A DNA stretch of 64,000 bases from Lingula anatina (taxonomy: Eukaryota > Animalia > Brachiopoda). Shown here piece by piece: positions 7,384-58,880 of this stretch (positions are counted from its first letter, which is position 1; each line of letters opens with the position of its first letter). The stretch spans positions 13,578,001 to 13,642,000 of the forward strand of contig CM120640.1 of the NCBI GenBank assembly GCA_051362555.1, in the 5' to 3' direction. The notes under the pieces were generated by a model. That model searched no databases, had not been told where the DNA came from, and was given only the letters and a program-made list of their open reading frames with translations. The position numbers and the translations under genes are program-made.

Positions 7384-10300
7384 ATGGCACTGGTTACAGT
7401 ACAGCGCTCTCCAAGTCCGAGTAATGTGGCAGAATCGGTAAGTTTTTACTTCTTTACTGCTCAGCCTTTGCACACCCAGTCGACAATGTCATGGACATTG
7501 TCACGCTCGGCTGTCACCGAACTTACCTTGATTGGTAAATAAATCTAAAAGCTACGTAAAACGATTTTATAATACTACATTAATCTACCGTAGTAGAGAT
7601 TACACGATCAAAATCGATATAATATTTTAACAAATTTATTGAAATCTCCTTGTACGCCAAATGCCTATGTGATTTGGTGTTTACCGAAATGTAAAATAAT
7701 GTAAATGATACACGTTGCTTGCAAAACAATAACTGTGATTACCTGCATTAAAAATTCAAAGAAAACATAAACAGCCCTCAACCCGCATACCATTCCCAAA
7801 TCCTCCTCTGCTACATTGTCCCATTCTTAAAATCAACATTTGTCTTAACATAAATGACCTATGAATTTAAACACATCACTTGTTGCATAATTGCCATTAA
7901 ATATTGATCATCATCATCATCCTTCGCCTTGAGCAGAATTGCAGCAGCAAGATGCCTAGACCAGAGTTGCTTCTGTCTCATTATTCCTACTAGTAGCATT
8001 TCATTATGTTGCTCACCAGTGTCATTCATGATGGTGTCTGAGTAGGAGTGCATTCAGAACAAGTTGATCTGCAGACTAACAGACCCGCAGACTAAGGCTT
8101 CGTTCACATGCAATGTCTATTTTCTATTTTCTATTTTCGGTATGTCTTATGATCACGGTCTGTGCACTGAATATCCCGCCGCGTAATTACTGGCAGCGCG
8201 AGCCAGTTACTTATAGTAACTTATAGTAACTGGCTCGCGCTGCCAGTAATTACGCCGCGGGATATTCGGTGCACAGACCGTGATCATAAGACATACCGAA
8301 AATAGAAAATAGAAAATAGAAAATAGACATTGCATGTGAACGAAGCCTAAATATGGCCAACCCACTTAAAAGCGATGCTGCTAATCCCCCGATGGTCTTC
8401 CCAACCCACATGCACCTTCGCTGCAGGGGCCCAGCAATTAAACCTCAGAGCTGAAATTTAATCCATTTGATGATGTGTGGGGAGATGAGGAAACCATCAG
8501 GGAATTAAGCAGCTTGCTGTTAAGTGGGGTTGTCCATATTTAGTCTGCGGATCAGTTAGACTGTGGGTCATCTTTTCTGAGTGCATTCTAGGTTACAGTG
8601 GGTCTGCTTTGATGATGGTTGATCTAATGTGTGGGCACAGGGCCCAGCAAATTGTAGTCATCTTTTCCTAATAATGATTGATAAGGTGGTAAATTTTTTT
8701 ACACATCTGTGTTAAGAATATGGTATTTTCAGCTGATATTCAGTACTATTCTTAATAGTTGTGTGTTACAACCATCTGTGTTGTTTTTCAACTTCGTAGT
8801 GATGCTCCAAGTTTCTGGAACACAAGTGATGGTCCAAGTTTCTGGAACACTATAGCAAAATGCTTTCAACAAAAGCTTGAAAGACCTTAATATTTTTATA
8901 CTTACTAGTAATTTTAGACATAATTTCTGAACTTATTTGAACGCTTCTCACACTTATGATTTTTCTTTTTCTTTGATCTTATGAAATCTTTTGAGGGGTC
9001 AGTGATATATTGGAACCAAGATATTTGAATTATTCAATTTGGTAATGTTTTCTAGTTCTATACCTGTTAGTGTCTTGATCTTGGTCTGGTAAAATCTTGA
9101 TAAGGTAGTGGAAGTCATCTCTCCCATCCCACCAGGGATGGCATCTTAGACAGCAATACAAAAGTAGCACATTGTGCTTAAAGGACTTAAATCTTTAGAG
9201 TCAAAGATAACCAGAAAAATATTCACAGATAAAATGTCAGCTTTTATTTATTGCTGCACTGTACACTCTCTTGTCTGCCATTATTTCTGACCCCACTAAA
9301 TCCCACTTGATTGTCAGGCCATTTATTAACACTACCCATAGGTCTTTTAGCACTAAAACCTATACTAGCCACACTCATGAATGAACCAGCACTACCAACA
9401 AGTATGAATGTTAGTGCTAGGTATCGCTTTATTGGTGCAAAATAATTTTAGTAAATGCCTAATCCGTTTATAAGGCCCGATTTTAGCCAAAGTGGCAAAG
9501 GGTTTTTGCAGATAATTTTTATTGCTTTCTTAATGTTTTCATGATGGAGGGGAAAAAATGAAAAAGATTGATTCAATATTTATTGAAATGAAGTTTAGCT
9601 AAATGATGCCTTATTTGTTAATTTTTACTTATTATTTTTGTTTCAACTTTTATCTAGATATTTTCTCTTTTCTGTGCAGTCCCATGTTTTTTGTTTACAG
9701 TGGGATGCTTGATTGACAAAAGTAAAAAATAACATATCTTCTAAGTAGATATCTTCTTGCCCTTCAAAATTAAGTATTCTTCTTTTGTCTGCATGTAAGT
9801 CCCAGTAATTTGGTATTATGTATTTCTTTTTACTATTTAACAAATCGTTATCAGTTTTGTTGCTAATGATATAGTTGCATAGATTGATATGAAATTTATT
9901 TTTACTCACCATAATACCTCTATCTGGAGTTTAACCAAGTCATTTGTTTGTCAGTCATAGGTCAGGTATTTGATCAACATTGTGGATCATAAATTTCAGT
10001 TTATTTTATATGGCATGACAGGACTATGATAATGTCTCCATGCCCACAGTGAGATTTATGTTGCTGTTAATTGGAAAGTGACTGGGACAGCATAATCCAG
10101 TGTGAAAAGTTTTAGTCCCTGACCTAAATGCTGATATTGAAAAGTAGGGTGGGAGGTGGTGTTTTGATATTACATCACTAACAACAGTAGCTTATCAGTT
10201 GGCACACTTATATAGTGAAAACATGTAAACAGGAGGAAAGAGGGGAAACCGTTTTTCACTGGGTTTTACCATTGGCTACTGTGATAGTTTACAGCTAAGA

Positions 10301-13300: not shown

Positions 13301-16300
13301 ATATAATACACCACAGGGCTAACTTTTTCATTATTTTTTTCTTATGCAGAGAAATAGCAAGGCAGGTTGGAGGTTTTTATTTAACTTAAAGTTTTATAAT
13401 ATATACAGGGAAGCTTTGCTAGCATTCATTTGAATTGGCACCTTAACGGTGTTAATGAATTTGAAGTCAAGTAATAGATTTAAAAAGTTATTCATGAAAA
13501 AATTAGAAAACATGATTAATTTCTAGAAAGTATTTGTTAAAACGAAGTATTGAGAGAGTGAGAATCTAAGGCTTCGTTCACATGCAATGTCTATTTTCTA
13601 AATTCTATTTTCTATTTGCGGTATGTCGTATGATCACGGTCTGTGGCCTGAATATCCCGCGGCGTAATTACTGGCAGCGCGAGCCAGTTACTTTAAGTTA
13701 CTATAAGTAACTGGCTCGCGCTGCCAGTAATTACGCGGCGGGATATTCAGGGCACAGACCGTGATCATACGACATACCGCAAATAGAAAATAGAATTTAG
13801 AAAATAGACATTGCATGTGAACGAAGCCTAAGGTGTTGCTGTTGTGTGTGGTACTAAGAATAGTACCCTAATTTACAGTAGGGCTGTTGTGCACACGTGT
13901 TTTTAACACCAGATCACCATCCTTTGATTTTAAAATGATGAATTTAAACTTACCAAGGATTTTATATTTATATTATGAGGCAGGCATTATATGCACTACC
14001 AGTTAACTTAAAGATCAGATTTAATTGGCATCATTTTTGTTAAAGCTTCAGTATCCTGTCTTGATATATAAATGATATTGCACACATGCCACGTAGAAAA
14101 TGATGGCAATTCAGTATACCGTTTTAATCAGGACATTACATTGTTGTAAACCTAAATCAGAAAGCGAAAGAAAGGAAATAATTAAGATAGCACATTCAAA
14201 AGATATATTCTGAAATGTTGGTGTGACATGACACACTCTTTACCAATGGTAAATCACAGGATTTAGTTTATCTGCAAATAGAGAGTCAAAGTATTTTCAC
14301 TGATTTGTGCCACTGTGCCCTTTGTAGAAGTCTGTTTTGTCAAATTATGATGATATAATCTTGTCGTATTTTTTCCACAATTAAACCTATTTCTCTTCAT
14401 ATTTTAGGAGCCTAGTGATGAGGTGGACCCTGCCAAGTCGCCTACAAGGCAGAGAAGGTAGGTGTGAGATTTTTGTCCATGTGGCAGAAAAAGCTTACTT
14501 AAAGTCATTTTATAAAATTGTCAATTTGCAAGGTGTTAGAAATGTACTAAATGCTCATAATATGTGTTTAACAAGGTGCTAAATATTTCAGTAATATATT
14601 TTACATGGTCTTTGAGATTAATGTCGTTATGCTTATCCAGATGTAACTTCATGGATTTTAGTGGTGACCAGAATTACCATGAGCATTTAACAAGTTGGTT
14701 AATGTAGTTTTATGCAGTATGAATTTTTATTTAAAGGCAAAGGGGCAGAGATTTTGTAAATAATACAGTTCTGTGATTGTTTACCAATATACCATGTTCA
14801 CATTATTTAGACTACTTTAGTTGGTTTAAAACATTAAAATTGGAAATAGTGGACAAAAAGTTGGAGGATGGCAAACATTTCATTGATATAGAAAAAAAAT
14901 AAAAATAATAATAGCATTCATCCAAGATTTGGATTTGAAAGTTTTTTGAGTGCATTGAAAAAGTGAAAGCAAAAAGCATGAAACTCTGTGCTCCAAGAAT
15001 GTCATCAGAGAAAGCAATACAACAGTGACATACAAAATACATTGTCCAGTGAACTATAGAGCTTTAAAAAAAAGAAATTAAGTATATCCATGGATAGTTT
15101 TTATTTGTTGCCACAGGTATGGACCCTGGGTGGCATCATCTGGTTCAGGAACCGTCAGTGTTAAATCTGTTATACTTGGGGCTTGTATGTCTTGGACAGC
15201 TTTTACAACAGTGGACTAACTAAAAAGCTTGATGTCTAATCTGCACTGTATATATTCCCCATTGGGAAATATTCAAGTGGGTCGGCCATATTTGACCCAC
15301 GGACTAGTTAGTCCACTGTTCTGAATGCGGCCTTGGAAATGGTGTAGTAATACTTGGGCAGGACTTTCCTTTGGATGGTGGTATCAGGGAGTACAAATAG
15401 ACAAGATTGGATGATTGCACAATTTCAAAGGCAGTCCCACCACATCAGATATGTTATGTGTTTGTTTTGCATATTTCTTTTCAACTTTCTTTTAATACAG
15501 GATGATAATATGGCTCTATAAATATCACTATTTTCATTTTGTTAATAAGTTTTCCATTATTATTTAACAAATTTTGATCATTTCATACTATTGTTTTCCA
15601 ACATACCATCATTAAGAAATTCTTATCACATTTGCCATAATCTGCCAATCAGAAACAACAATTACACAAAGTTAAGTCCAACTTGAATATCAGGTTCATA
15701 ATATTTATCCACCCACATTCAAGGTTTTTTTTAACCTGTCATCTACACTTTAATATGACAACAAAGTAGTCTGCTTTCCAGTGCAGTTTTGTTTCTCAAA
15801 TGAAACTACACTTTGGAATGAAACAAACTATGATGTAAATAAACAACATGACCAAATAAAGACAAAAGCTTGATGTACCCTTGACTTGTATCAGGAGAGA
15901 CCAAAACAGTAATTACCACCTTTTCTGAAATGCAAAAAGATTAGGTCAACATTGTTAGCAGCACCCTGCTTCAGTTAAAGAGGTAGCTAAAATTGTGGTG
16001 GTTTTGGTAAAAAAATGCATTCAGTTGATTCAGAATGGTTTAGATATGGATTTCATTGTACCCTACTATGCACAATCCTTTATAAAGCAAAGTTTATACC
16101 ACAATCCATAAAACCCTCATTTCTCCTTATCTAGTCTTGTGATATCTCTTTTTCTTTTGGTTTCTGCCCAGATTTGAGTTACCTGACGGGGATATTGCAG
16201 TAGGACGTTTTTACTGGTGCTTTGACAAATTTTGTCTGTAGTCAGTATGAACAGTTTGGTTTTCATGTGGTTTTGGTGGTAAAGGTGTTGGTTCCTGTTT

Positions 16301-34512: not shown

Positions 34513-36431
34513 AATAAACTGATCTGCTAAACCAGGAAATTGGTTGGTAAGTTTTACTATCATATTTCATCATTGGCACAGCACAACAATGCATGCATAC
34601 AAAACGTTATAGTATCACTATCTTGTCAAGCTTTGATCTTTGATGTGTACTACATAATGTAAGGAATTTGGTAAAATTTATGAGCATCATGTAATTGGCA
34701 AGTATTTGACTCTGGGAAAAGAATTTAATTGGTACCTGACATTATGAAAGAGTTTTGAAGACTACATATGACAATAAAATAGCCAGGTTGAATAGGACTG
34801 ATAACACGAGTAGTGAAGCTTAGAACACTGCCTTTGAGCATCAGCTGCACTGATGTTAAAAGCTTTTGAAGATCATAAAGGTAAATAACAATTCAATGAC
34901 CTGTAGGTGTGGATTGCTGCCACTGAGATAAGTGATGAGATATGGAGCAGCAGCTTTGGTAGCCTGCAGGGCTTGCTCATGTGTGCCTGCAGCTATGTTG
35001 GTCACACACCATGCTGCCTCCATCTGCAGATCTGAATCATGGCCACTCAGCACTCCTACTAAGTGCTGCAGAGCATTGTCAGTTCTGGGCAATGAAAAAA
35101 AAATGTATATAATAAAATGTATGTACACATTCAACAAGACATTTTTTTTGTCATTGATACAAAAAATTGCAATATGCCCAATCATAAAAATTGTTGCATA
35201 AAAATGTTAACAATTTAGACTAGATCAAAATTTAAAAGCTAAGTATAAAGAAACACAGATTTCAATTTCCAACCAACTCTTATGAATTTGAATTTCTTTC
35301 ACTTGAGTAAATAAATGATTTCATTCAAATTCTGCCTCACCTCATAAAGTCCTCTATAAACACACTTCCCTGAGAAAAAGCCTTCCTCAATATTTTAAGT
35401 GAATCTTTGACAGATGAATGATCTTGCAAAAATGAAGCACATGCTGTTTTCATCTGAAAATGAAAAGGCTCACATCTGTCACTATAAATGTCAAACAGCT
35501 GTTGTGTCATAATTATCAGACCCGTGGCCAGCCATTTCAAAAAGGGGGGGGAGGGGGACTTTTTTCTGAAAAAGCCTTGAACATGAAACCATTGTTCATC
35601 TGGATCAAATTTTACCGAGAGCTGACCATTTTCTGGCAAAAAGGGCAGTTTGTTCAAACTCCGAACTCTCCCTTGGCTACATTCCTGCTTATAAAAACTT
35701 GTAGGCTGTAGCATATAATGAAAATTTGTAATTATGTCTTTTAAGGGGTTGAAAGATACCGAGGAATATACATATATCTGATTCACAAATTACATATGAA
35801 AATGACATATATTACACTGCAAAAGGGCAAATCAGAAAACATAGTAGTACTACAATATGAATTTAGAATTACCTGATCCAAAGTAATTTCAACTTCTTCG
35901 TCTGCATTATCTAATCTCACTCTCTTGGCATCTAGGGCCTTTGCCTTTCTACTTTTACGTAACTCTAGAGTAGAAAGAAACTTTTTAAATGCAACATTTT
36001 CAAATTTCTAAATTTATTAGAAAAATCAAGGGTGGAATCTTCTGTGAAGTTAAACAACTATCAAAACAAAACAAAGGCAGCTTTAATAATAAACCTTGGA
36101 TACCGTGCCCGAGAATGAAACATTTTATTCCAAAAATAATTTTGTTTGAAATAACTTACCATAAATATTGTCTGGATAGTGAGAGATGAGTGTTAAACCT
36201 ACTGTCGCCATGAATTCTACTGTTCGCTTTAATGCGATTAGTTAACAGAGACCAATGGCATGACTCATATTGGCATTCTCAAGCAATGACTGCAATTTGT
36301 CAGAACAAATCCAAACAAAGATGACATACACGTCTAATTTATTTATTCTTACCAATGTCTTCTTGTCTTCGTCTGTCACGAAGATCATCAGGAGTATGTG
36401 AGTGGTGTTTATATTGCTGTCGGTGGTCCAT
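30311..36431 (-). CDS. TMCO6: TMCO6-like / importin-alpha-related armadillo-repeat protein, multi-exon
   Basis: Exon 1 36353-36431 MDHRQQYK...DDLRDRRRQEDI plus exon 2 35873-35964 ELRKSRKAKALDAKR (IBB-like); ARM repeats LQMEAAWCVTNIAAG, DQCAWAVGNMAGD, PLLRCLGNICSG, IRKESLWLLSNIT; probable last exon 30311-30352 (otherwise stop at 31739). Confidence 0.8.
30560..31737 (+). mobile_element. Decayed 5'-truncated non-LTR retrotransposon (RTE-X/CR1-like ORF2 3' end)
   Basis: Frameshifted remnants LNVLSEFCDK*HMEVSTNKTEVMV, FDSMFFPILLYGAEIWG, IEKVQIKF, IGECGRLPL, IKYWLKL, LSRLRTSCHDLKIKRGRH; ends in AATAAA...TTATT. Confidence 0.75.
34421..34511. repeat. (AAT)n followed by (ATT)n: inverted microsatellite pair
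   Basis: Seen directly in a TMCO6 intron. Confidence 0.9.
35517..35688. mobile_element. Possible short non-autonomous element (CAGACCCGTGGCCAG...TTGGCTACATTCCTG)
   Basis: Imperfect inverted termini with G-run and C-run subtermini; a similar end lies at ~54880-54911. Confidence 0.4.
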
Positions 36432-37113
36432 ACCGTCAAGATTTTATTATAATACTAAAAGGACGCAAGAAATCCCGTGGGCGCTGCCATCTTGAATTGT
36501 TTTACCTTATGCTTGAAAATTAAAGAAAACAATGTACCCATTTGTCGAGAGGCACTGCAATACAATTCTCAGTGAATCATAAGATCCCAGTTAATTGAAA
36601 AATATTACTTTACCTAATAATATCTATACCTCTGCTGTTCATAGCAAGAAAAACAATAGTAGAACATTTAAATTCCGGCTTGGATCAACTGTGGTAAAGC
36701 GCTTATTTCAACTTGGCCATCTTGTCTGTGTACTTCACTTGTCACAGTCTCAAATATCAACACCATGGTAAGTTAGTCAAAGAGGCATTGATTGAACATA
36801 GACTTTGAGTCTATTTTACAGACCTTATCGTACATCGTCTCATCTTTTTACTAATCGGAGCCGAAGGTTAATATGAAACGATGCTTTTTCTAAATTTTAG
36901 ATTGGTCACTAACATCACGCTCGGCTGTCACCTTGATTGGATAGTAAGCGATTGTCGTAAAATCGCTAAATGATATAAAAACCGGGTGCATAAACTTGGA
37001 AACCACCTAGGACAACCTTGGACTGCCACATTAATCCAATACAATGCAAAAATAAACTATAACAAGTGGTTAAAGCCTTCAAACCGAATGTCGTAAAGTC
37101 CCCATATACCTCC

Positions 37114-37968
37114 ATTCGCCTTATTCATATAGACCATAATCCTTTGCGCGCAACAGGAGTTCCGGTATTTTTTTCCCATAGCAATTCTATAGACGCGTGA
37201 ATTAAATGCCGCACAGGTAAGTGAAAAATGATTATTTAATTTCAAATAAAATAGATATGAATAAAACTAATATTTCTCCTCATGATTATCACATTTTGCC
37301 ATGAAATTAGTCGTTTTTTAATAATTTTTTTTTATTTAGACGATAGGCTGACTTGGAGCGCATTTGCGCACCGCAGTGTGTTAGATGTGTTGAGAGGAGA
37401 TTGCGTTCGTGCTTGTCTTGTTTGACCCATTTTTAAAGTCACGTTGGTTTGTTTTGATTTTCTGCGAGTCCGATATGAGTCGGATGTCCATTTTGTAAAC
37501 CATAGCCAGGCCAAATTTACCCAACTTCCAGCAAGAGAGCCGTGAGTGAGACACTGAGAGGAATTGTGATATGTCAGGAAAGTCGTATACCCATTTATCT
37601 TTATGTTACCATATGTCAGTTGTTCCGTTATTTTTAGACCAAAATATTTACATTTGTTTGAAAGTATATTAGATATAGTAAGAGTGTCCCATTTTTAAAA
37701 TAAGAAGAAAAGGGTAATTCTGGTCAGAACAATATGTCTGATAAAGGCAAATAAATTCAGCGCTTCCACTATCATGCTTGTGGGCTGATTTGATAGTTGT
37801 CGGCGCCACTAGCTTGATTTTAGTGGTACATTGTTTTGAGGCAGTGGACATTAGTCAGGACAGGTGGCAGTGAAATATCACAGGAGAGCAAGCTCAGTGG
37901 TAGAGCGTTCACCTTGTGTGGAAGGTCTTGGGTTCGATTCCCAAGCTCTCCCTTTTCCAAAGTTACCA
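37114..37968 (+). repeat. Left terminal inverted repeat, 855 bp including the AT
   Basis: Reverse complement of 44250-45104; mirrored coordinates always sum to 82218; four mirrored ORF pairs in the ORF track. Confidence 0.97.
37883..37952 (+). ncRNA. tRNA-like Pol III unit in the left TIR (cloverleaf with 5-nt anticodon loop; possibly Thr-TGT derived)
   Basis: Acceptor GGAGAGC/GCTCTCC, D stem GCTC/GAGC, anticodon stem TTCAC/GTGGA with loop CTTGT, variable AGGTC, T arm TTGGG-TTCGATT-CCCAA, B box GGTTCGATTCC, TTTT immediately downstream. Confidence 0.8.
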
Positions 37969-38265
37969 ATAGCCTACCAGTAACTGCATGCATTCCTGTC
38001 CAATACTGCATATTCATGCTCTCAAACAGTTATTTTAAATTGCGTACAATATTTAATTGTATCTTCTTTCAAATAGCATACATTGCTGAGCTACAAAGCA
38101 AATGGCAAAAAATTTATCCATTATATATTAGCATATCTTGGTTTAATATCTTTAATTCTTAATATATTTATAATACTAAATGTGCTCATCTTGCCCTAAA
38201 GTCTACTTTATTTTGTACCATCATTTTGCCATAATTTTCTACAGGGAATAAAGTCATTCAGAATA

Positions 38266-40193
38266 ATGAAAAAGGCATATGTGGGCGACTACTGCTGCGT
38301 GCCTGGATGCACAAACTCCCGTGGGAAATGTAATCGGGAGGGGCAAGCAATTAGCTTTTACCAATTCCCCAAAGATGTGAGCCGCAAACACAACTGGCTG
38401 TGCCACATACCTGTTGAGAAGGATTTTACACCTACTACATCCACAAGGATATGTTCTGTGCATTTTGCAGGAGGTATATATAATCAGCTTAAATGTCTGT
38501 CACACAATATACCAAATCAACTAGGGGGTAAAGAAAATTATCCTCTATCAGCTATACTAGGTGTGACAGACATTAAAGCAATTTATTTGATAGCAATTTA
38601 ATGAGATTCCCCAGGGAGTTATACTGATCCAGATGGATCAATCTAGGCATGAGATAGGGAAGATGATCAATTAATTAATTTTTTTATGGATCAATCTAGG
38701 CATGAGATAGGGAAGATGATCAATTAATTAATTTTATTATTATTATTATTATTTATTGCGGTTCAAGTACATTTTTTAAAATGACTATGACCTAACAGTA
38801 TATATTATATAATCATATAACTAAAATTACAATAGTAAATTACAATATTGTTTATACAATAACTGCAATCAGATTTTGCAATTGCAGTATACGCTCAGTT
38901 ACTTTGGTTGATATATATAATTATATTTACTCATTTACAGGTAGAAAAAATGATGACCCGACTCATCCAAGCTACTCACCAACTATTTTTCCCAATAGTT
39001 CCTCAAAGCCCCGCACAACAAATAACTCTTTATCTGCAAATAGGAGCTACAACCAAAAGCCAAAACATATTTTCAGGAAAAGATCATCAACTGGCAGGCA
39101 AGCTGCTGGCAGGCCAAAAGTTGCCAGACTTTTAGATTGTCTGAATGAAGCAGGAGATCATGATTATTATACAACAAATAAACAACAAAATTTAACAAAA
39201 ATTCAACAATTGGAAAAAGAGGTAACTGAATTGAAAGAGCAAATTTCTGATTTAAAAGGAAAATTTCTTCGTTTGGAAAATATAAAAGATGATGACAGAA
39301 AATTTCAGTTTTGGACTAATTTGCCAAATTTTTTAGTTTTTTCTTCATTATGCGATTACTTAAAAACAAGAACAGATTCAAATAATTTATGTTACTGGAA
39401 TGGAGAGGCCACAAACACAACAGGGATGACGTCTAAAAAAGGGCCAACTAGAAAATTTACATTTGAAGAAGAATTTTTTATGGTTTTAGTTAAATTAAAG
39501 ACAGGAAAATTTAATGAAGACATTGCTCAAACTTTTGATATAAGCACAGGTCATTTTTCGAAAATCTTTACAACATGGATTAATTTTCTGAGCAATGAAC
39601 TTAAAACCTTATTTGAAATGAAATATTCAACAGAAGAACAACCTAATTGCTTTCAATCATTTGACAATTTAAAAATTATTTTAGACTGCACAGAACTTTT
39701 ATTACAAAAATCATCATCACTTGATTCAAGAAAGAGCACATTTTCAAATTATAAACATCACGATACAGTGAAATTTCTTGTTGGCATATCACCAAATCTT
39801 GCCGTGAACTTTGTGTCCAGTGCATGGGGTGGCAGAGCTTCAGACAAGCATATTACCCTGAACTCTGAGCCACTCCTGCATGGACTCAAGAGGGGGGATT
39901 TGGTGATGTCTGACAGAGGTTTCACTGTATCTGATGAATTGGAATTTCAAGGTGTAAAGATCGTAATGCCTGATTTTAAGGGAAGAGAAAGAGTGCAATT
40001 CACAAATGCCGAATCAAATAGATCAAACAAAATTTCCCATGCAAGAATTCACGTAGAAAGGATCATACAAAGAATTAAGACATTTCACTTATTAGAACAA
40101 ATTGTTAAGTTAAATATGTTTGACCTATTTGAGCAAATTTTTGTTGTTTGTGCTTACCTGACAAACTTTCAGTTACCAGTTATAAAGAAATAA
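38266..40193 (+). CDS. THAP + HTH + DDE (DDE_Tnp_4/Harbinger-like) transposase, 2 coding exons (38266-38473, 38941-40193), 486 aa
   Basis: THAP CCVPGC...FYQFP...W...ICSVHF completed across a phase-1 intron by YSPTIF; coiled coil; FEEEFFMVLVKLK helix; catalytic ILDCTE, MSDRGF, RIHVERIIQRIK; no stops. Confidence 0.92.
38633..38735 (+). repeat. Tandem duplication with 53-bp period in the transposase intron
   Basis: ATGGATCAATCTAGGCATGAGATAGGGAAGATGATCAATTAATTAATTTT occurs twice. Confidence 0.9.
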
Positions 40194-40725
40194 ATAATTC
40201 CATTCTTATTTAGTTTATTTATTTTTAGTTAGCATTTTTTGTGATTAATTGTCTTTTTCAATAATGAATTCTTGCATGGGAAATCAAGTCCAGTTATTCA
40301 GCATTACAGTCCAGACTAAGAGCACACCAAAGTTCAGTAAAATTTTGTATTTGTAAATCTCCAAGAAAACCCACTTTCAGCTTAAAATGCAGAATAATCC
40401 AGGCAAGGCAAGTTTGATTACAGTCAGTTTTATTCAAATATGTATGTGGTCAGGTTGAAACTGTATTTATATTTGTCATAGTGGTGATTTCACGGCCAAA
40501 CTTCATTTTAGGAACTTCCACATTTAAATCAAATTAAATCAACATTTGGTAAAGATCATTCAGATGCCTCTTTTATAATGACATTATATGAATCTGTTAA
40601 TGTATGTTATTCATTGAAAAAAACTAACCAAGTTTAAAAGGGTATTTTCAGTTTAAAAAGGATTGAATAACTTTATTTATGGCTTCAACCCCAAGTTGGA
40701 GTTTAAAGCAGTCTGACTTAAATTA

Positions 40726-41140
40726 TGTTGAAGGTCTCTAGTAATATGTCTTTATTCTGTTAATTGGCTTCAATATCTCTGACTTGTTTTAGGAATCACT
40801 GTAATGTATTTTGTGTGTATCAGTATATAAGGAGAAGAACTTTGTATTAGAGACAGAGAGAGATTGGGGATCAGAGCTCGGAGTGAGTTTGGTCAGTCAA
40901 ACCGATAGCTGGATTGTCCCTGCTGTCTTAGGAGACTCCAGATCTCTCAACCAGAGAAATAAACGTAAAGATCAGTCATTTGTAGTTGTTCTCTGGAAAA
41001 CATATTACTGCTGTTGTGTTACCTGTTGGAGAAGTAAATCAGACCAAAGTGTCCCGTGATATATTCATCAAAGGAGAATTCTGCAGACTACTGTAATATC
41101 ATTTCCTGTCAGAGATGTAATGCAGACTTACATCTCAACA
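40726..41140 (+). mobile_element. Probable solo LTR inside the transposon
   Basis: TGTTGA...TCAACA inverted ends, internal TATATAAG (~40825) and AATAAA (~40958); flanks ATTA/AGTA (3 of 4 match). Confidence 0.6.
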
Positions 41141-41712
41141 AGTAATTTTAATATTTTTGAAATATGAACATATTATAAGATTGTATAATAAAGGTATGGG
41201 ATTGGTATGTTACTACATTGTTAAGAAATGCCATTTTCAGCCAGTAATTTATTGTACATCCCAATTAGTCATTTGAGTACATACATATAGTATTGGAATA
41301 GAATAAAATTTTCATGTTTGTGTACTCAACATTTGTATTTTTACATCATTTAAACTGTTATTGTAATTGACTTTGTAAAACACTGTATTTTATCATGAAC
41401 TGTTCAAGTCCTTAAATAAACTCATTAAGGAGGAAATTGCAATTACTCCTCAAATCTTCATATAAATGCATGTTACCAAACTTTTTGTAAATACATTATG
41501 AACAAGTTTAGGAATTTATGTATATGTTGACATGATGGTGATTGAGGTTGGGTATAATGATTTAATATAATTATATAAACAACCATTCTCAATATGAAAG
41601 TACTACACCAATATGTGCACATATTTTGTAATGTTCTATATACATCACATAATTACACTGGGAATCATTTCCCAATATTGGTTTTGACCAATTCAGTAAT
41701 CATTTTCATTCC

Positions 41713-43584
41713 CTAACACATCTTGGGCATTTTGTTCTTATTGTTCCAGCTTAAAATATTCGGCACTATATATTGCTTAAAAAAGCTTACACAACCAGGT
41801 AATAATTTTTTTTGGCAAAATTCAGCATTATACCCAACCTCAATCACCATCATGTCAACATTTGTCCAAATTACAAATTCACATTTATTCAATTTTAGAA
41901 TATACATCAATGCCTGAACTTGTTCATAATAGCCCTCTGTTGAGAATGGTTTTAGCATAAAATTGCCATCCAGATACCTTATCTTACCACATTTTATGGC
42001 ATCTTTCACCATCATATTCCTGCATGAATATGGACACTTAATTTCTAACACTCTCTCAGAATGGCAGCTACATGTTATTATTCCATCTGGACTGCCTCTT
42101 ATATATGGATAGTCTTCAGCAACAACTAGGCCTTTCTCATTAATTGACAAGTTTGTGTGTTGCTTCTTCTGTTGTCTAAGGTACTGATCTCTTGCCTTCT
42201 TTTCATTACTAATCCCCCACTTAAGTGATGGTACTGTAGTATAAGGGATATTGTCTTCAGAGCATTCTCTCCCCATGATGGCAGTAATGACCGATTTGCA
42301 TGGGGGTTTCTGCTTTTCAAATGTGCGAAGAATGGACCCCATCCTTGAGGCTGTAACTGCACCCCTTCTTTGCTGGTGCCACTCAGGGTTCTCTCTCTGG
42401 CCTCTTGTGGATTCCTCAATCTGATGAATTTCATTTTCACTAAATTTTATTGATTTTACAAAATTTTCAACTTGATCGTTAATGCATGCATCTGCATCAT
42501 AATCACAATTATGAGGATGGTCAAAAATTGGTAATGGTAATGCAGTGACAGTAACTTCATTGTCAAATAAAATTGAATTGTCATTTTCTAGGTGTGTATC
42601 AAAGAGAATAGAATCTGGAATTTTATTTGCATTATGGAGATTTGCTCCCAAAAGATGTACTGCAGGACAATATTGTCCTATGTGATGTGTGGCATTAAAA
42701 AGGCTCGCCCTCAACTTTAAAATGTCATCTTTTGAAGGTGGTTTTTGCTGTCGTATGACCTGTCCATAGTCGTCAGGGGTCCTCTGCATGCTGCTCACAT
42801 TCTTTTTTATAGGAAGATGAGACAGCAGTGATGGACTTGCAGAGGACCCTTTAGGCTCCAGCCACTCGCACAGCAAGGAGGTGCTAGCTGTTATGTCCTC
42901 CTTGACTCCACTTGCAACTAGGTCTGCAACCCTAAATAGTGTTGCCCCTATATGGCCACATGTCAAGGAATAGCCTACAGAACAGGTACAAAACCCACCA
43001 CATGGAATGGCATTGATTTTGTTTATAACAACAAAAACCACCTTTACATCCTCAGAAATTGTTGATTGAGAGGCATTGCAATAGGCCCTTATTATACTAA
43101 AAAATTTCAAATCTGAACATTGGCTATAACGAACAGAATGCACAGAATCTTTTAACTGATACGGGCGAGAGAGTTTGTAGGTTCTTGCACAATCTGCTGT
43201 GATGACTTCTGTATTTAAAAGATATCTTTTTATGTCTGACACATCTATATCTGGGATGTTTAATAAATTCGTTGAAAAGTCATTTCGTGTACAGAGCTTT
43301 TGGGGACTGACATTTTGATGAAATTCTTGGAATTGTTCGTCAGATAATTTTACTCCTGGGTGAAGTAATGAGTCCTTTGTTTTGAACCCTGTAGTTGACA
43401 GTCCCAATATGTCACACAAAAAAATGCACCTTGCCTTTTTTGGGTAGTGCACTGCAATTTGGTGCTTCAAACATAATTTTTTTAAGGTCTCTGCTTTCAG
43501 TGCAAATACTTCTGTGCATGATCTTGGTTGTAATGTCACAGTATCTTCTTCGGTCTTGCTTTTAGTTTTCATCTCCCCAACCAA
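41713..43584 (-). CDS. SWIM zinc finger + YqaJ/lambda-exonuclease-like protein (transposon second ORF); first ATG at 43572
   Basis: SWIM CTCSVGYSLTCGH; YqaJ motifs TRGQ...WHQQRRGAVTAS, WGISNE, GSPDG, LEIKCPY, YYEQVQ; open for ~620 aa; splice acceptor at 43585-86. Confidence 0.9.
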   Translation of the reverse strand: MVGEMKTKSKTEEDTVTLQPRSCTEVFALKAETLKKLCLKHQIAVHYPKKARCIFLCDILGLSTTGFKTKDSLLHPGVKLSDEQFQEFHQNVSPQKLCTRNDFSTNLLNIPDIDVSDIKRYLLNTEVITADCARTYKLSRPYQLKDSVHSVRYSQCSDLKFFSIIRAYCNASQSTISEDVKVVFVVINKINAIPCGGFCTCSVGYSLTCGHIGATLFRVADLVASGVKEDITASTSLLCEWLEPKGSSASPSLLSHLPIKKNVSSMQRTPDDYGQVIRQQKPPSKDDILKLRASLFNATHHIGQYCPAVHLLGANLHNANKIPDSILFDTHLENDNSILFDNEVTVTALPLPIFDHPHNCDYDADACINDQVENFVKSIKFSENEIHQIEESTRGQRENPEWHQQRRGAVTASRMGSILRTFEKQKPPCKSVITAIMGRECSEDNIPYTTVPSLKWGISNEKKARDQYLRQQKKQHTNLSINEKGLVVAEDYPYIRGSPDGIITCSCHSERVLEIKCPYSCRNMMVKDAIKCGKIRYLDGNFMLKPFSTEGYYEQVQALMYILKLNKCEFVIWTNVDMMVIEVGYNAEFCQKKLLPGCVSFFKQYIVPNILSWNNKNKMPKMC

Positions 43585-44249
43585 CTAAAATAAAAACATG
43601 AGATTTCTATACTAGTTGTGACAGACATTAAAGCAATTTATTTGTAACAGGAAGCATTAATTAGGGCAGGGGAAGAGGTTTAGACAGTAACAACAAGAGA
43701 TCAATGTTTGTACATGTGTACAATTAGGGATAAAAAACTAGACCCTCACCCTAGACCTTTCATAATGGGTAAATGACAACAATGAACTTGCTTTCCTTAT
43801 GATTTTCTTCTTTGCATTTATTCTGCCTTATATTCAATACCGGATAACTACTAGTACTAGAATAATTTCATAAAATCAGACAGGGAAAAATCACACAGGG
43901 AAAATATAATCTGCTATACTCAAGTAAACATATCAAGAAAGGTTCAACTATCAATTGTCCTTTACCTAGTAGACTAAGTTAGCATATCCTAACCACTTTC
44001 AAATAAATAATGATGCTTTTCAGAGTGGAAACCTCCATGCATGCAATACATGTTCAAAGTACAACATACTTACAGATCCTGTACACCATGGGCACCTTGA
44101 GAGGAAATGATCATAAAATGGACAAAATGTTTTCTGTACTAATATACAAGTATAAATGAAAAACAATACTCTATATGATACAAATATATTTTAAAATTTG
44201 ATACTGTTTGAGGGCAAATGTAGGACAAGAAGGTAGTTATTTAAGTAGC

Positions 44250-45104
44250 TGGTAACTTTGGAAAAGGGAGAGCTTGGGAATCGAACCCAAGACCTTCCAC
44301 ACAAGGTGAACGCTCTACCACTGAGCTTGCTCTCCTGTGATATTTCACTGCCACCTGTCCTGACTAATGTCCACTGCCTCAAAACAATGTACCACTAAAA
44401 TCAAGCTAGTGGCGCCGACAACTATCAAATCAGCCCACAAGCATGATAGTGGAAGCGCTGAATTTATTTGCCTTTATCAGACATATTGTTCTGACCAGAA
44501 TTACCCTTTTCTTCTTATTTTAAAAATGGGACACTCTTACTATATCTAATATACTTTCAAACAAATGTAAATATTTTGGTCTAAAAATAACGGAACAACT
44601 GACATATGGTAACATAAAGATAAATGGGTATACGACTTTCCTGACATATCACAATTCCTCTCAGTGTCTCACTCACGGCTCTCTTGCTGGAAGTTGGGTA
44701 AATTTGGCCTGGCTATGGTTTACAAAATGGACATCCGACTCATATCGGACTCGCAGAAAATCAAAACAAACCAACGTGACTTTAAAAATGGGTCAAACAA
44801 GACAAGCACGAACGCAATCTCCTCTCAACACATCTAACACACTGCGGTGCGCAAATGCGCTCCAAGTCAGCCTATCGTCTAAATAAAAAAAAATTATTAA
44901 AAAACGACTAATTTCATGGCAAAATGTGATAATCATGAGGAGAAATATTAGTTTTATTCATATCTATTTTATTTGAAATTAAATAATCATTTTTCACTTA
45001 CCTGTGCGGCATTTAATTCACGCGTCTATAGAATTGCTATGGGAAAAAAATACCGGAACTCCTGTTGCGCGCAAAGGATTATGGTCTATATGAATAAGGC
45101 GAAT
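44250..45104 (-). repeat. Right terminal inverted repeat, 855 bp including the AT
   Basis: Reverse complement of 37114-37968. Confidence 0.97.
44266..44335 (-). ncRNA. tRNA-like Pol III unit in the right TIR (identical copy)
   Basis: Exact reverse complement of 37883-37952. Confidence 0.8.
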
Positions 45105-45401
45105 AGAGACAATAAAATAGAGTCAGCTTGTGAAACAAAAATAAACCAACTTAAACATAATAATCGAAATAAAATACTGCCGGGCATCGGAGCGGCCTAA
45201 AACTTGGCACGCTTACCGCAAATACTGCAGGCTACATCATCCCGTCGCTCGTTTGTAAATTCCGTGCATGGCATACGCACAATCAAACCGTATATCCAAA
45301 TTGCACCTCTGATGTTTAAATTGGTCCTCTCTACAATCCAATTCAGGAAATGACGTAACCGCAGAGGTCGCATTGTCCAATTGCATGGCTTCTTTTTCAT
45401 A

Positions 45402-48400
45402 ATGGTAGGTTAGAGCGTGACTAACATGAAAATGTTATAACTTAGACTACACCATTTGAAATAAAACCACGCAGTTCAGTTTCTAATGCGGGCACCTGAT
45501 AGGTTTTATAATGATATCCCAGTTACACGTATAACGGTATTTGGTAAAATATTCTCTGAATACAGTTCTTCATGTTGCCCATTTGTGTAAGTTGCACTAT
45601 TGGTGGAAGGGGGCGTGGTTATTTCAATACTGGGTAGTCATTCTGCTGTATCTCCTCCTTGGTTGTCTACAAGTTAGGTTGCTGTGAAATGATACACAGG
45701 CTGTGCTGAACAAATTTCTGAATTCCAGAAGTATACATTGGAAATTGTTTCCTATCGGACACAAATTCTCAAATAATCAAATTGGCCATGCAGCTTCTTT
45801 TGTACAGCTAAGATCTAATAGATCTTAGTGTACAGTAATTTCTTTTATGCGGTTATTTACTTCCTGGCAGGAAAAATATTGTGTCAATATTTGACCTAGC
45901 TTGTGCATTCAAAAGTCCATTTTTGGTTTCATTTGTGGTGTTTAATTTCATGGTAGCTTTGCTGGTAGCCATCATGATGGATCTTACCTTAATCTTGGCT
46001 CTGTCAAGTTTAGTAGGCTAAAACAGTCCAGTTTCAATGGAAATTAGTATGAATAATTCAATACAAATGCAATACATGTAATACAAATTAAAATTAAAAT
46101 TTCACTTCAAACCAATCCCTATACAATGATCTAACAACTGTCTTTAAAAAATTAAAATGTGCGATTTAACACCTACTTTACGTATGTTTAACCAAAACTG
46201 TATACTTTATTTGATTTTAATTTCTGAACTATTAGTCAAAGAAGAGGGGATTAAGCCTTGAAGAAAAAAGAACAAGGATGATGGAATTTTTCTTTGAAAA
46301 GGTACGTACCCTTGCATGTTATTGTACTTTGAGTGTAATATTTAAAGGTATTTTATATGTCCAACTCATAAATCAATGCTCAACCATGATTGAGGCAGGT
46401 TATCATTTTGAGGATCTGAACTGGGAAAGATAAAGTGTATTGCCCTGCAGGATATCTTAGGCCTTCAGCCAGAAATTTCCAGACACTTTCGCTATAAAAC
46501 CAACATGTTTCTTTAAGATGGTATAGAACCTAGACCAAATTTTAATTCAGATTGTGTTATTTTTTTATCAATTATTAATTTTTCTCTATAGAAAAAGTTT
46601 GGAATGTTTTATAAGTAGGCAATATGTTGATCAATATCAAATGGTCATTTTTTTTTTCAATTCTGAAATTTATTACAACCATGTTATTAATCTTTATATT
46701 TAATGTACTTAGTTCCACAACAATTTTTTCTTCAATTGCAGAAAGACTGTTTCCAGTTAAAGGAACTAGAAAAACAATGTCAAAAAGAGAAAGGGATCAC
46801 CTCAATGTCAGTAAAAGATGTTCTTACCAGCCTTGTTGATGATGCTATGGTGGATACAGACAAAATAGGAACTTCAGTTTACTTTTGGGCTTTTCCAAGT
46901 AAAGCCAGTCAAAATGTAAGTATTAGTTTATACGATTAGCATGTGAGTTACTAAGGCAAAGAATGACATAGTTTATATCTTGAATTATAAAATATGTCAG
47001 AATTGAGTTTTTTTTTTTCCAGAGAAAGAGAAAATTGAACGATCTTGGCAAAAATTTAGAAGAGTTAGAAAGGAAAAAGAGTAACTTGGCAAATGCTATT
47101 TGCAAAGCAAAGATGGGGAAAGAGGAAAGCGTAAGTAACCTTAAGTTTCCAACCACTTTGTAGGTTTTGAACTTTTGAAGGGTCACTCACATGAAGTCAA
47201 AACTCACATGGTGTAATACAAAAACTCAAGTGTATCTTTTATTGAGTTAATTCACCTTATATCTGTCACCTCTCCTAACTGATTTGGTTCTTGTCTCCAG
47301 GAATCTTTATTGTCAATTATGTCTCAGTAATGTTTTTTTGATATACCCGATATACCATCTCATTTTGTGCTGTAATCTGTCTAGCATATAATAATAATAT
47401 TTATTTTCTTATATAGCGCATTCCATTTTTTACATTTCAATGCACTTTACAAATAATTAAAAAGTCTAAAAATAACAATACTAAAATACTTTAACATTTA
47501 CTGATAAAATTAATTAATTAAAGAAAGCAGAGAAAATTTATTGATATAACTTTAAAATACTACTAAAATTAACCCAAGCTCACTCTTAATAAATGATAAA
47601 CAACTAAAAGGTTTAAAGGAACACTAACCATAAAATTCTTTAAAAAGATGAGTTTTAAGACAGGCTTTAAAAGTATTATATAAATAAATAAACATTGACT
47701 AGTTTAGATTCAGCAGTCAGTTTACTAGTATGGTATGCCGAAATGAAAATGAATGATGTCTAGTAGAGTTTTTGTAATATTTCCCTTAAAAAGAGCAACA
47801 TATGAAGACTTGAGTATTATATGTAATTTCAATGATAGTAAATACGTACACCAAGTACTTCATACTATCATTTAAAAGTTTGGCCTGAGAGGTGTAAGAA
47901 AGGGAAAACTATTACTATAGGTAATGTCTCCCTTAAGAGCCTTGCTTTTTCAATACTTATATAGAGTATTTGTGCAATACTTCATTCTAATTCTAAAATT
48001 TCCAATTATTTTAAGAATAACAGCAACTTCCTGCTTGTAGGCTGACAGAACCCAGGTCCTTGCAGATCTATCCAGAGCTCAAGATGAAAGAGACAAATTG
48101 CGATTAGAAGTTGATAAATATAAAGAATGTGACCCAGAAGTTTTAGAAGCTATGAAGAAAGAGGCACTTATTGCCAAAGAAGCTGCTAACAGATGGACAG
48201 GTACAACATATCAGATCTCATTGATGTGATTGCTGATGCAAAATTGCTTAGATGGTTTGGTTACAAGAGGTCTTAAATGTTGGAATATGTAGTCTGTGTT
48301 GGGAATGGGGAAATAAAAAATCAGGTACTTTTATATGAGGGGCTTTATCATTCTGAATTGGGAAAGACAATTAGATTTGCAGGACCATATGAAAACAAAA

Positions 48401-51409: not shown

Positions 51410-58880
<7,471 letters not shown>

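Follow-up and report, generated by a model that had tools for sequence, protein, structure and literature searches.

A two-gene ISL2EU-related transposon of Lingula anatina with identical 853-bp terminal inverted repeats and a predicted shared promoter and leader

According to the portion of the survey by Han (2015, PMC4482050) used here, ISL2EU elements of 25 families have terminal inverted repeats (TIRs) of 6-259 bp, usually start with GG and prefer the target A/AT/T. Longer TIRs occur in Spy elements, ranging from 9 to 1,474 bp with a meaning left unexplained in the consulted sections of PMC4122938, and one Harbinger family has a TIR of 1,042 bp in an element of 2,116 bp. The present analysis concerns a transposon in a stretch of 64,000 nucleotides from the brachiopod Lingula anatina (assembly GCA_051362555.1, contig CM120640.1), which is referred to as the window. 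The element was 7,987 bp long (37116-45102; about 8.0 kb), contained two convergent genes and ended in TIRs of 853 bp. It is read here, with a probability of roughly 0.62, as a recently mobile two-gene transposon with proteins of the ISL2EU type, whose ends are identical likely by copying and would provide one promoter and leader for both genes.

The element, its termini and its copies

The following features belong to the element and its target site.
37116-37968, plus strand: left TIR, 853 bp without the AT, identical to the right TIR in 853/853 positions
44250-45102, minus strand: right TIR, 853 bp, equal to the left TIR; also present in contigs of DNA run X4 with 0 differences
37114-37115, no strand: left AT, duplicated at the target or, with a blunt insertion, made up of the target A and the terminal T of the element (empty sites)
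45103-45104, no strand: right AT (sequence and empty sites)
38266-38473, plus strand: transposase exon 1, THAP (Pfam PF05485, E 1e-12)
38941-40193, plus strand: transposase exon 2, HTH_Tnp_4 and DDE_Tnp_4 with D318, D394 and E442 (Pfam above cut-off)
41713-43572, minus strand: gene for a SWIM-like plus YqaJ exonuclease protein of 619 aa (Pfam YqaJ, E 6e-17)
41495-41930, minus strand: inverted duplication shared by the coding end and the 3' flank of the YqaJ gene (sequence)

Both arms of the inverted repeat (37114-37968 and 44250-45104) were aligned over 855 bp with 0 mismatches and 0 indels, as the first-pass annotation, made from the letters alone, had noted by eye; 853 bp remained after exclusion of the AT. 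This is more than three times the longest TIR reported for the ISL2EU group (259 bp). The length had been called unusual, which is correct against the 6-259 bp of ISL2EU but not against Spy, where TIRs reach 1,474 bp. Without the terminal AT the element ends read TCGCC...GGCGA, and the annotated end sequence was found at both TIR edges.

The element interrupts an abundant host repeat, and the empty site CCTCC AT AGAGAC was present in other copies of this repeat in 7/7 sequencing runs examined. Since the empty sites have a single AT, the AT was duplicated, and the element extends from 37116 to 45102 with TC...GA ends, in line with the target duplication proposed earlier. A blunt insertion at A/T with the ends TTC...GAA would be an equal alternative, as the sequence fits both alike.

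The gene content was of the ISL2EU type, as annotated, with a THAP-HTH-DDE and a YqaJ gene (Pfam THAP, HTH_Tnp_4, DDE_Tnp_4 and YqaJ). The two joined exons of gene 1 gave a product of 486 aa identical to L. anatina NCBI XP_013380134, which backs the splice model of the THAP-DDE gene. The spacing D318-K341-D371-D394-P413-R438-E442 fits the PHIS pattern as given in the part of PMC4122938 consulted. Although the gene had been described as uninterrupted and indeed had no stops and all expected Pfam domains, it contained one intron. Gene 2 had the PD-(D/E)XK residues and the motifs SPDG and EIKCP. Its description as an uninterrupted convergent SWIM-YqaJ gene was borne out for YqaJ, but the SWIM part is a CxCx8CxH pattern, kept in homologs, with no Pfam match at an E-value of 0.1 or below. 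Gene pairs of the transposase and YqaJ type, judged by equal lengths of their contigs, were also found on common contigs in molluscs and a nemertean, with paired homologs in Argopecten, Haliotis and Lineus. Between the NCBI model of gene 2, XP_023930360, and the window there is one residue difference, L345V (42538-42540), whereas the transposase is identical.

Other copies were sought in contigs from two of 11 DNA runs (X1 and X4, from different studies). These contigs included no flanks of other copies; contig depth is not equal to copy number, and 'about two copies' is a rough figure. In X4 three TIR contigs with 0 differences had depths of 371, 443 and 629, compared with an interior depth of 161 and a flank depth of 88 (TIR 2.3-3.9x interior). 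In X1 the depths were 591 for the TIR (one bin), 252 for the interior and 109 for the flank. In both X1 and X4 the interior contig on the YqaJ side broke off some 30 nt inside the TIR, a stop that a two-copy repeat would force. One X4 contig (depth 87.8) parted from the window at 36915 with 54 of its letters still to come, and at 45451 another one of equal depth set in, a pattern that points to the likely absence of both host repeat and element at this locus. As TIR contigs were nevertheless present, the element likely resides elsewhere in X4 with a doubled TIR. The element is likely younger than the still polymorphic insertion of the host repeat, and the annotated youth of the element is supported by this probable absence. 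The long TIR is thus probably a family-wide trait of a recently mobile element and no assembly error; a one-off rearrangement, named earlier as a possible refutation, does not agree with the X4 contigs, which have the same TIR.

Over about 785 bases of the TIR the X4 contigs were identical to the window, against 4 differences in the adjacent 664 bases (Poisson P 0.009); when the TIR was compared with the whole interior, P was 0.17. Contigs of a likely sister element were also present (depth 107 and 86), in which 31 of 311 DDE bases (39815-40125), about 10%, differed. A diverged TIR-like contig (37566-37702) had depths of 219 and 164, corresponding to 2.05x and 1.92x the sister depth, in both samples. 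This twofold depth suggests lasting homogenisation and an older two-copy architecture, with the contigs being unlinked.

Relatives were collected in a metagenome scan, which gave 34 loci out of 211 candidate stretches. The search for their ends relied on similarity to the end in the window and would miss other end types; ATTC was no search criterion. Ends were found in 10 of the 34 loci and represented seven distinct sequences, all of which (7/7) started AT/TC and shared a common 53-bp block. TC ends therefore mark a wider lineage and are not peculiar to this copy, and the earlier statement that the termini are unlike those of described ISL2EU elements applies to the window and to all seven relatives' ends (TC vs GG). 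The base outside the AT was A in 3/9 aligned ends, and the flanks varied among relatives. Five terminus matches with 4 mismatches (L012, L017 twice, L020 and L023) lacked ATTC and were dropped as ends. None of 157 candidate stretches in viral contigs contained a relative.

Only two of the 34 loci were complete; L010 and L011 represent one family at two sites, 7.4 kb long with both genes convergent, and had imperfect TIRs of 53 bp with 79% identity. A tRNA was found in none of the 34 loci, most of which were short. As the complete relatives have 53-bp TIRs and no tRNA, the long TIR with a tRNA-like unit is likely derived in the Lingula family, and the long TIR probably arose by copying one end onto the other. 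Of the lineage proposed earlier, with its TIR as a whole module, the long TIR is consequently a trait of the Lingula family and is lacking in its complete relatives. In L011 (7501-7665) the right and left ends were joined head-to-tail through a single AT (...CCGA AT TCGCG...), which may reflect a tandem dimer, a circle formed on excision or a loop in the assembly.

Part of the terminus of the element (37117-37175, mirrored at 45043-45101) was shared with another repeat, which was more abundant in both X1 and X4 and may be a related non-autonomous family. One X4 contig of this repeat had GAAAATGG ahead of its end, giving A AT GG, the canonical ISL2EU end.

Both genes had perfect inverted copies of 15-36 bp of their coding end 75-190 nt past the stop. 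In the transposase gene this was a perfect 20-bp inverted repeat of the coding end at 40032-40051 (plus strand) with the 3' flank at 40265-40284, and in the YqaJ gene 36 perfect bp (41826-41861 and 41524-41559) plus 31 bp at 90%; direct-repeat controls gave 7-14 bp. Such copies also occurred behind the transposase in two related families (L005, L006, L008, L009 and L018) and could, judged by pairing, fold the mRNA ends into hairpins. A positionally conserved hairpin between coding end and 3' flank was rejected, as the copies occurred in 5/29 scored transposase loci (two families) at differing positions and in 0/14 YqaJ loci. The THAP intron contained a 93-bp hairpin (38487-38579), resembling a small miniature inverted-repeat transposable element (MITE), of which 38 bp recur at 43607-43644 in the predicted leader intron of gene 2, and it was followed by a 53-bp tandem pair of another host repeat (38633-38738).

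Predicted promoter and leader in the terminal repeats

In the proposed mechanism the conserved terminus would serve as transposase end signal and as a housekeeping-type promoter with Staf/ZNF143-like and ETS-like sites. Transcription would start in each TIR, and two leader introns would then be spliced out, with acceptors lying 21 nt (transposase) and 12 nt (YqaJ) upstream of the ATGs. The TIR would have grown from about 53 bp by repair with the other end as template, similar to what the consulted part of PMC3573991 proposes for Galileo, and a single promoter with a non-coding leader would then be common to both convergent genes, a layout described for MuDR in the sections of PMC3440606 used. 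The features involved are as follows.
37116-37166, plus strand: lineage-conserved terminus with TC start (relatives' ends)
37217-37339, plus strand: predicted leader intron 1, CAG/GTAAGT ... TTTATTTAG, 123 nt, AT-rich, GC 0.19 (splice signals)
37340-37541, plus strand: predicted non-coding leader exon 2 with the donor GCC/GTGAGT at its end (splice signals)
38235-38244, plus strand: predicted acceptor 21 nt before the transposase ATG, seen by eye, just below the pyrimidine cut-off of the scan
43585-43601, minus strand: predicted acceptor 12 nt before the YqaJ ATG (splice signals)

The conserved terminus contained on its other strand, within 37154-37166, an ETS-like CCGGAA core, which is changed in L034. 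A Staf/ZNF143-like site was present at 37131-37148. Compared with the consensus YWCCCRNMATSCMYYRCR (from the part of PMC5006282 used), it had 4/18 mismatches in the window and 1-3/18 in relatives; fewer than 3 mismatches were obtained in 0/3000 random 60-mers of the window. A Staf site by itself was able to drive transcription in human cells, according to the excerpt of PMC3082894 available.

On the inward strand of the TIR a perfect donor (37217) was followed by an acceptor (37339) and then by another donor (37542), an order reached in 0.12% of 5000 shuffles. GTRAGT occurred twice inward and 0 times outward. The order end, donor, acceptor and ATG was also found in the relatives L013 and L028, while the genes of L001 and of L010/L011 begin close to the element end. 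Upstream of both ATGs there was a nearby acceptor and no recognised terminus motif closer than the TIR. Leader exons are accordingly predicted from splice signals and from relatives.

Transcription was followed in five of nine RNA runs (including X12, X13 and X15), of which 6-25% of the reads were used and in which junctions were listed from at least 3 reads. In X12 and X15 spliced reads of host genes showed the strand; for X13 it was assumed. Reads in the TIR ran inward in X12 and X15, at up to 4.1x. RNA over gene 2 was below 1x in X12 and none was found in X15.

Several observations weigh against a shared promoter and leader in an autonomous element. The Staf match in the window was weak, as its 4 mismatches were also reached in 123/3000 random 60-mers, and the conserved terminal block may, by its sequence, be a THAP binding site only. 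The splice pattern for the shuffle test was chosen after the sequence had been seen. The CpG value of the outer TIR was 1.19, in the top 2.8% of windows, but the host repeat was equally rich (1.0-1.17), so that this richness says little. No splice joint from TIR to gene was listed in the five RNA runs; the THAP-DDE intron, supported by the NCBI protein, was not listed either, and the RNA depth was thus too low for the leader. In X15, 8 reads covered 37566, beyond the proposed donor at 37542. The TIR reads of X13 ran outward, and three of them had a 203-bp deletion that is no splice. The NCBI model of gene 2 has 358 aa and starts at M262, and gives no backing to the proposed 5' structure. Finally, gene 2 lacked the C-terminal Cys-rich tail found in 6/9 aligned homologs, while a 7-residue look-alike of the end of this tail, out of frame at the gene 2 stop, had an E-value near chance. 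Because the tail is missing, autonomy of the element is not to be taken as given; the element had been annotated as intact, which is true of its TIRs and open reading frames but not of this part of gene 2.

The tRNA-like unit and rival explanations

37883-37956, plus strand: tRNA-like unit with a run of four T (37953-37956), inward-facing (Rfam, 53.1 bits)
44262-44335, minus strand: second tRNA-like unit with a run of four T (Rfam, 53.1 bits)

The tRNA-like unit annotated in each TIR was recovered by Rfam at 37883-37952 (plus strand) and 44266-44335 (minus strand). It was 70 nt long and falls, by the splice predictions, in the second leader intron; 16 bp separate it from the inner edge of the TIR. 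Type 2 units of RNA polymerase III (Pol III) consist of an A box, a B box and a T run. All three were present, the A box at 37890-37900 with one change (A for U8), a perfect B box at 37931-37941 and the four T directly after the unit. The cloverleaf had four stems with 21/21 pairs intact, including one G-U. Translating tRNAs have U8, which is also in the Rfam consensus, and an anticodon loop of 7 nt. The unit had A at position 8 and a loop of 5 nt and is therefore unlikely to decode. In the minimum-energy fold three stems were kept and the anticodon arm was shifted (z -2.3). The unit likely binds the Pol III machinery.

In X4 no other contig matched the 13 bases at the start of the unit with at least 90% identity, and the bin 44323-44419 had the depth of the TIR contig (371.4); the unit therefore does not resemble a fresh capture or a young short interspersed nuclear element (SINE). 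A tRNA-derived SINE was rejected, as the four T follow right after the head and extra depth at 90% identity was lacking in X4, a search that older diverged families would escape. Rfam matches to mir-BHRF1-2 and SpF10 were far under their cut-offs and were discarded. The B-box pattern had seven matches in 145,051 bases, none within a leader. In L013 (3365-3450) a tRNA-derived-looking head with a B box was located just behind the transposase gene; it was not called by ARAGORN and is probably a SINE. A narrow literature search with exact terms found no report of tRNA units in the TIRs of DNA transposons.

It is somewhat the likelier case that the unit is simply carried along, and a tentative second that it was selected for a job. 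A reading in which it is a selected part of the cassette, either as a TFIIIC/Pol III shield or as a site where RNase P would cleave read-through transcripts ahead of their folding into an 853-bp hairpin, is unlikely as a whole, but it is the best of the alternatives. TFIIIC or Pol III at the inner edge of each TIR would keep silencing of the gene bodies from spreading into the promoter. The fully paired stems and the perfect B box and T run, next to the altered U8 and anticodon loop, would fit such a role, as would the lack of other X4 contigs of at least 90% identity at the 5' end of the unit and the end of the TIR 16 bp beyond it. The difference between TIR and adjacent bases in X4 (P 0.009) and the fall of CpG from about 1.2 outside to 0.06-0.43 inside point the same way, but CpG dropped at about 37560, ahead of the unit. 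Related loci lacked the tRNA throughout (0/34, only two complete), one sequence is known, which leaves no covariation to weigh, and the unit had no read in the five RNA runs, from whose libraries an RNA of 70 nt would be lost. A shade less likely again is the fuller version, a TC-ended lineage with Staf/ETS termini, in which a domesticated, non-decoding tRNA in each TIR cassette serves as TFIIIC boundary or RNase P site against silencing, and continuing conversion, also in sister families 10% apart, keeps the two cassettes identical.

The long TIR could also be a neutral repair accident, in which one overwrite left a still mobile copy with gene 2 on another promoter or barely expressed. TIR extension from internal sequence in Galileo (consulted part of PMC3573991) and the wide range of Spy TIRs without known meaning (in the sections of PMC4122938 used) are precedents, and the further short inverted duplications in the element and the RNA over gene 2 (less than 1x in X12, none in X15) agree with it. 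We consider it quite improbable. In both genes an acceptor lies close to the ATG, and the closest terminus motif recognised is the one in the TIR; the TIR-like contig at twice the depth of the likely sister's contigs, though unlinked to them, suggests a two-copy architecture of greater age. An explanation by misassembly, or by a single rearrangement at this locus, is hardly credible: 100% identity is expected from a collapsed or mis-joined repeat and no contig of X1 or X4 spanned the element, but the depth ratio of at least 2.3 and the break at the inner TIR edge were found in two samples, one of them likely without the insertion, and the exact AT junctions at both ends agree with the empty site.

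Surroundings and comparison with known systems

The element lies in the following surroundings.
36916-37113, no strand: host repeat, left part, CACGCTC...GAGCGTG, very high copy, about 515 bp (contig depth and ends)
45105-45427, no strand: host repeat, right part to 45419, then the 8-bp duplication 45420-45427 (sequence)
36908-36915, no strand: 8-bp duplication ACTAACAT of the host repeat, left copy (repeat reads begin at 36916)
36765-36767, plus strand: likely end of the first exon of an MND1-like host gene, ATG/GTAAGT (predicted)

Contig depth over the host repeat was about 150,000-205,000, compared with about 90-110 in the flank. The repeat (36908-45427) was MITE-like, with 7-bp inverted ends and an 8-bp duplication, is likely polymorphic, and lies near the common 5' region of TMCO6-like and MND1-like genes. 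The ATG/GTRAG at 36765-36767 was the only one in 36401-46236 and allowed an in-frame join to the exons 46236-46301 and 46742-46915; Pfam Mnd1 matched 46742-46912, and no spliced read was listed for exon 1. The element with the host repeat thus likely lies within intron 1 of the MND1-like gene. Another candidate for MND1 exon 1, an ATG/GT near 45402, was discarded because it falls inside the host repeat. Other palindromic or MITE-like repeats of the window were located at 8088-8355, 13566-13832, 55493-55778 and 56597-57150, two of them being related copies.

The element is of low copy and recently mobile, with defined ends and target, and therefore a usable substrate for transposition assays. 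For the YqaJ protein of the ISL2EU group, the parts of the group literature covered report no test. A shared TIR promoter would help to explain why PHIS elements can have long TIRs, an explanation missing for Spy in the covered sections of PMC4122938, and the conserved 53-bp end makes a TC-ended subgroup recognisable. With a working tRNA-like unit, this would be a DNA transposon that uses the Pol III machinery as a shield.

A narrow search found no paper on a Lingula ISL2EU; Repbase, Dfam, subscription journals or supplements may hold the family. Four short terminal motifs of the element were absent from three supplements of PMC4482050. Going by these features, assigned in a tree-free manner, the element would be an ISL2EU-related variant but not a canonical member, as the gene content fits and three terminal traits do not. 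It shares with ISL2EU, as far as the excerpts used describe the group, the THAP-HTH-DDE transposase with PHIS spacing, the YqaJ second gene, the AT target and an animal host. It differs in its TIR of 853 bp instead of 6-259 bp, in TC instead of GG ends, in the target C-AT-A instead of A/AT/T, in a length of 8.0 kb compared with a mean of about 4.8 kb, and in the tRNA-like unit in each TIR.

Spy is described in the consulted part of PMC4122938 as the sister clade of ISL2EU, with TIRs of up to 1,474 bp, and its blunt A/T insertion would also fit the ends found here. In contrast to the Lingula element, Spy has one gene, no THAP, the target AAA/TTT and GGANNNNG ends. Galileo, of the P superfamily, has TIRs of 0.3-1.2 kb that grew by recruiting internal sequence, with conversion proposed; it differs in having one gene, TIRs that vary among copies and contain tandem repeats, and mostly defective copies (excerpts of PMC3573991). 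MuDR of maize belongs to another superfamily and has TIRs of about 215 bp, in which the sections of PMC3440606 used mention no tRNA unit; its TIR promoter activity is experimental, while that of the Lingula element is predicted from sequence. In both elements two genes are convergent, with promoters and starts placed within the TIRs of MuDR by the same source and predicted there in Lingula, which suggests that the MuDR solution of one TIR promoter for two convergent genes has seemingly arisen again in another superfamily.

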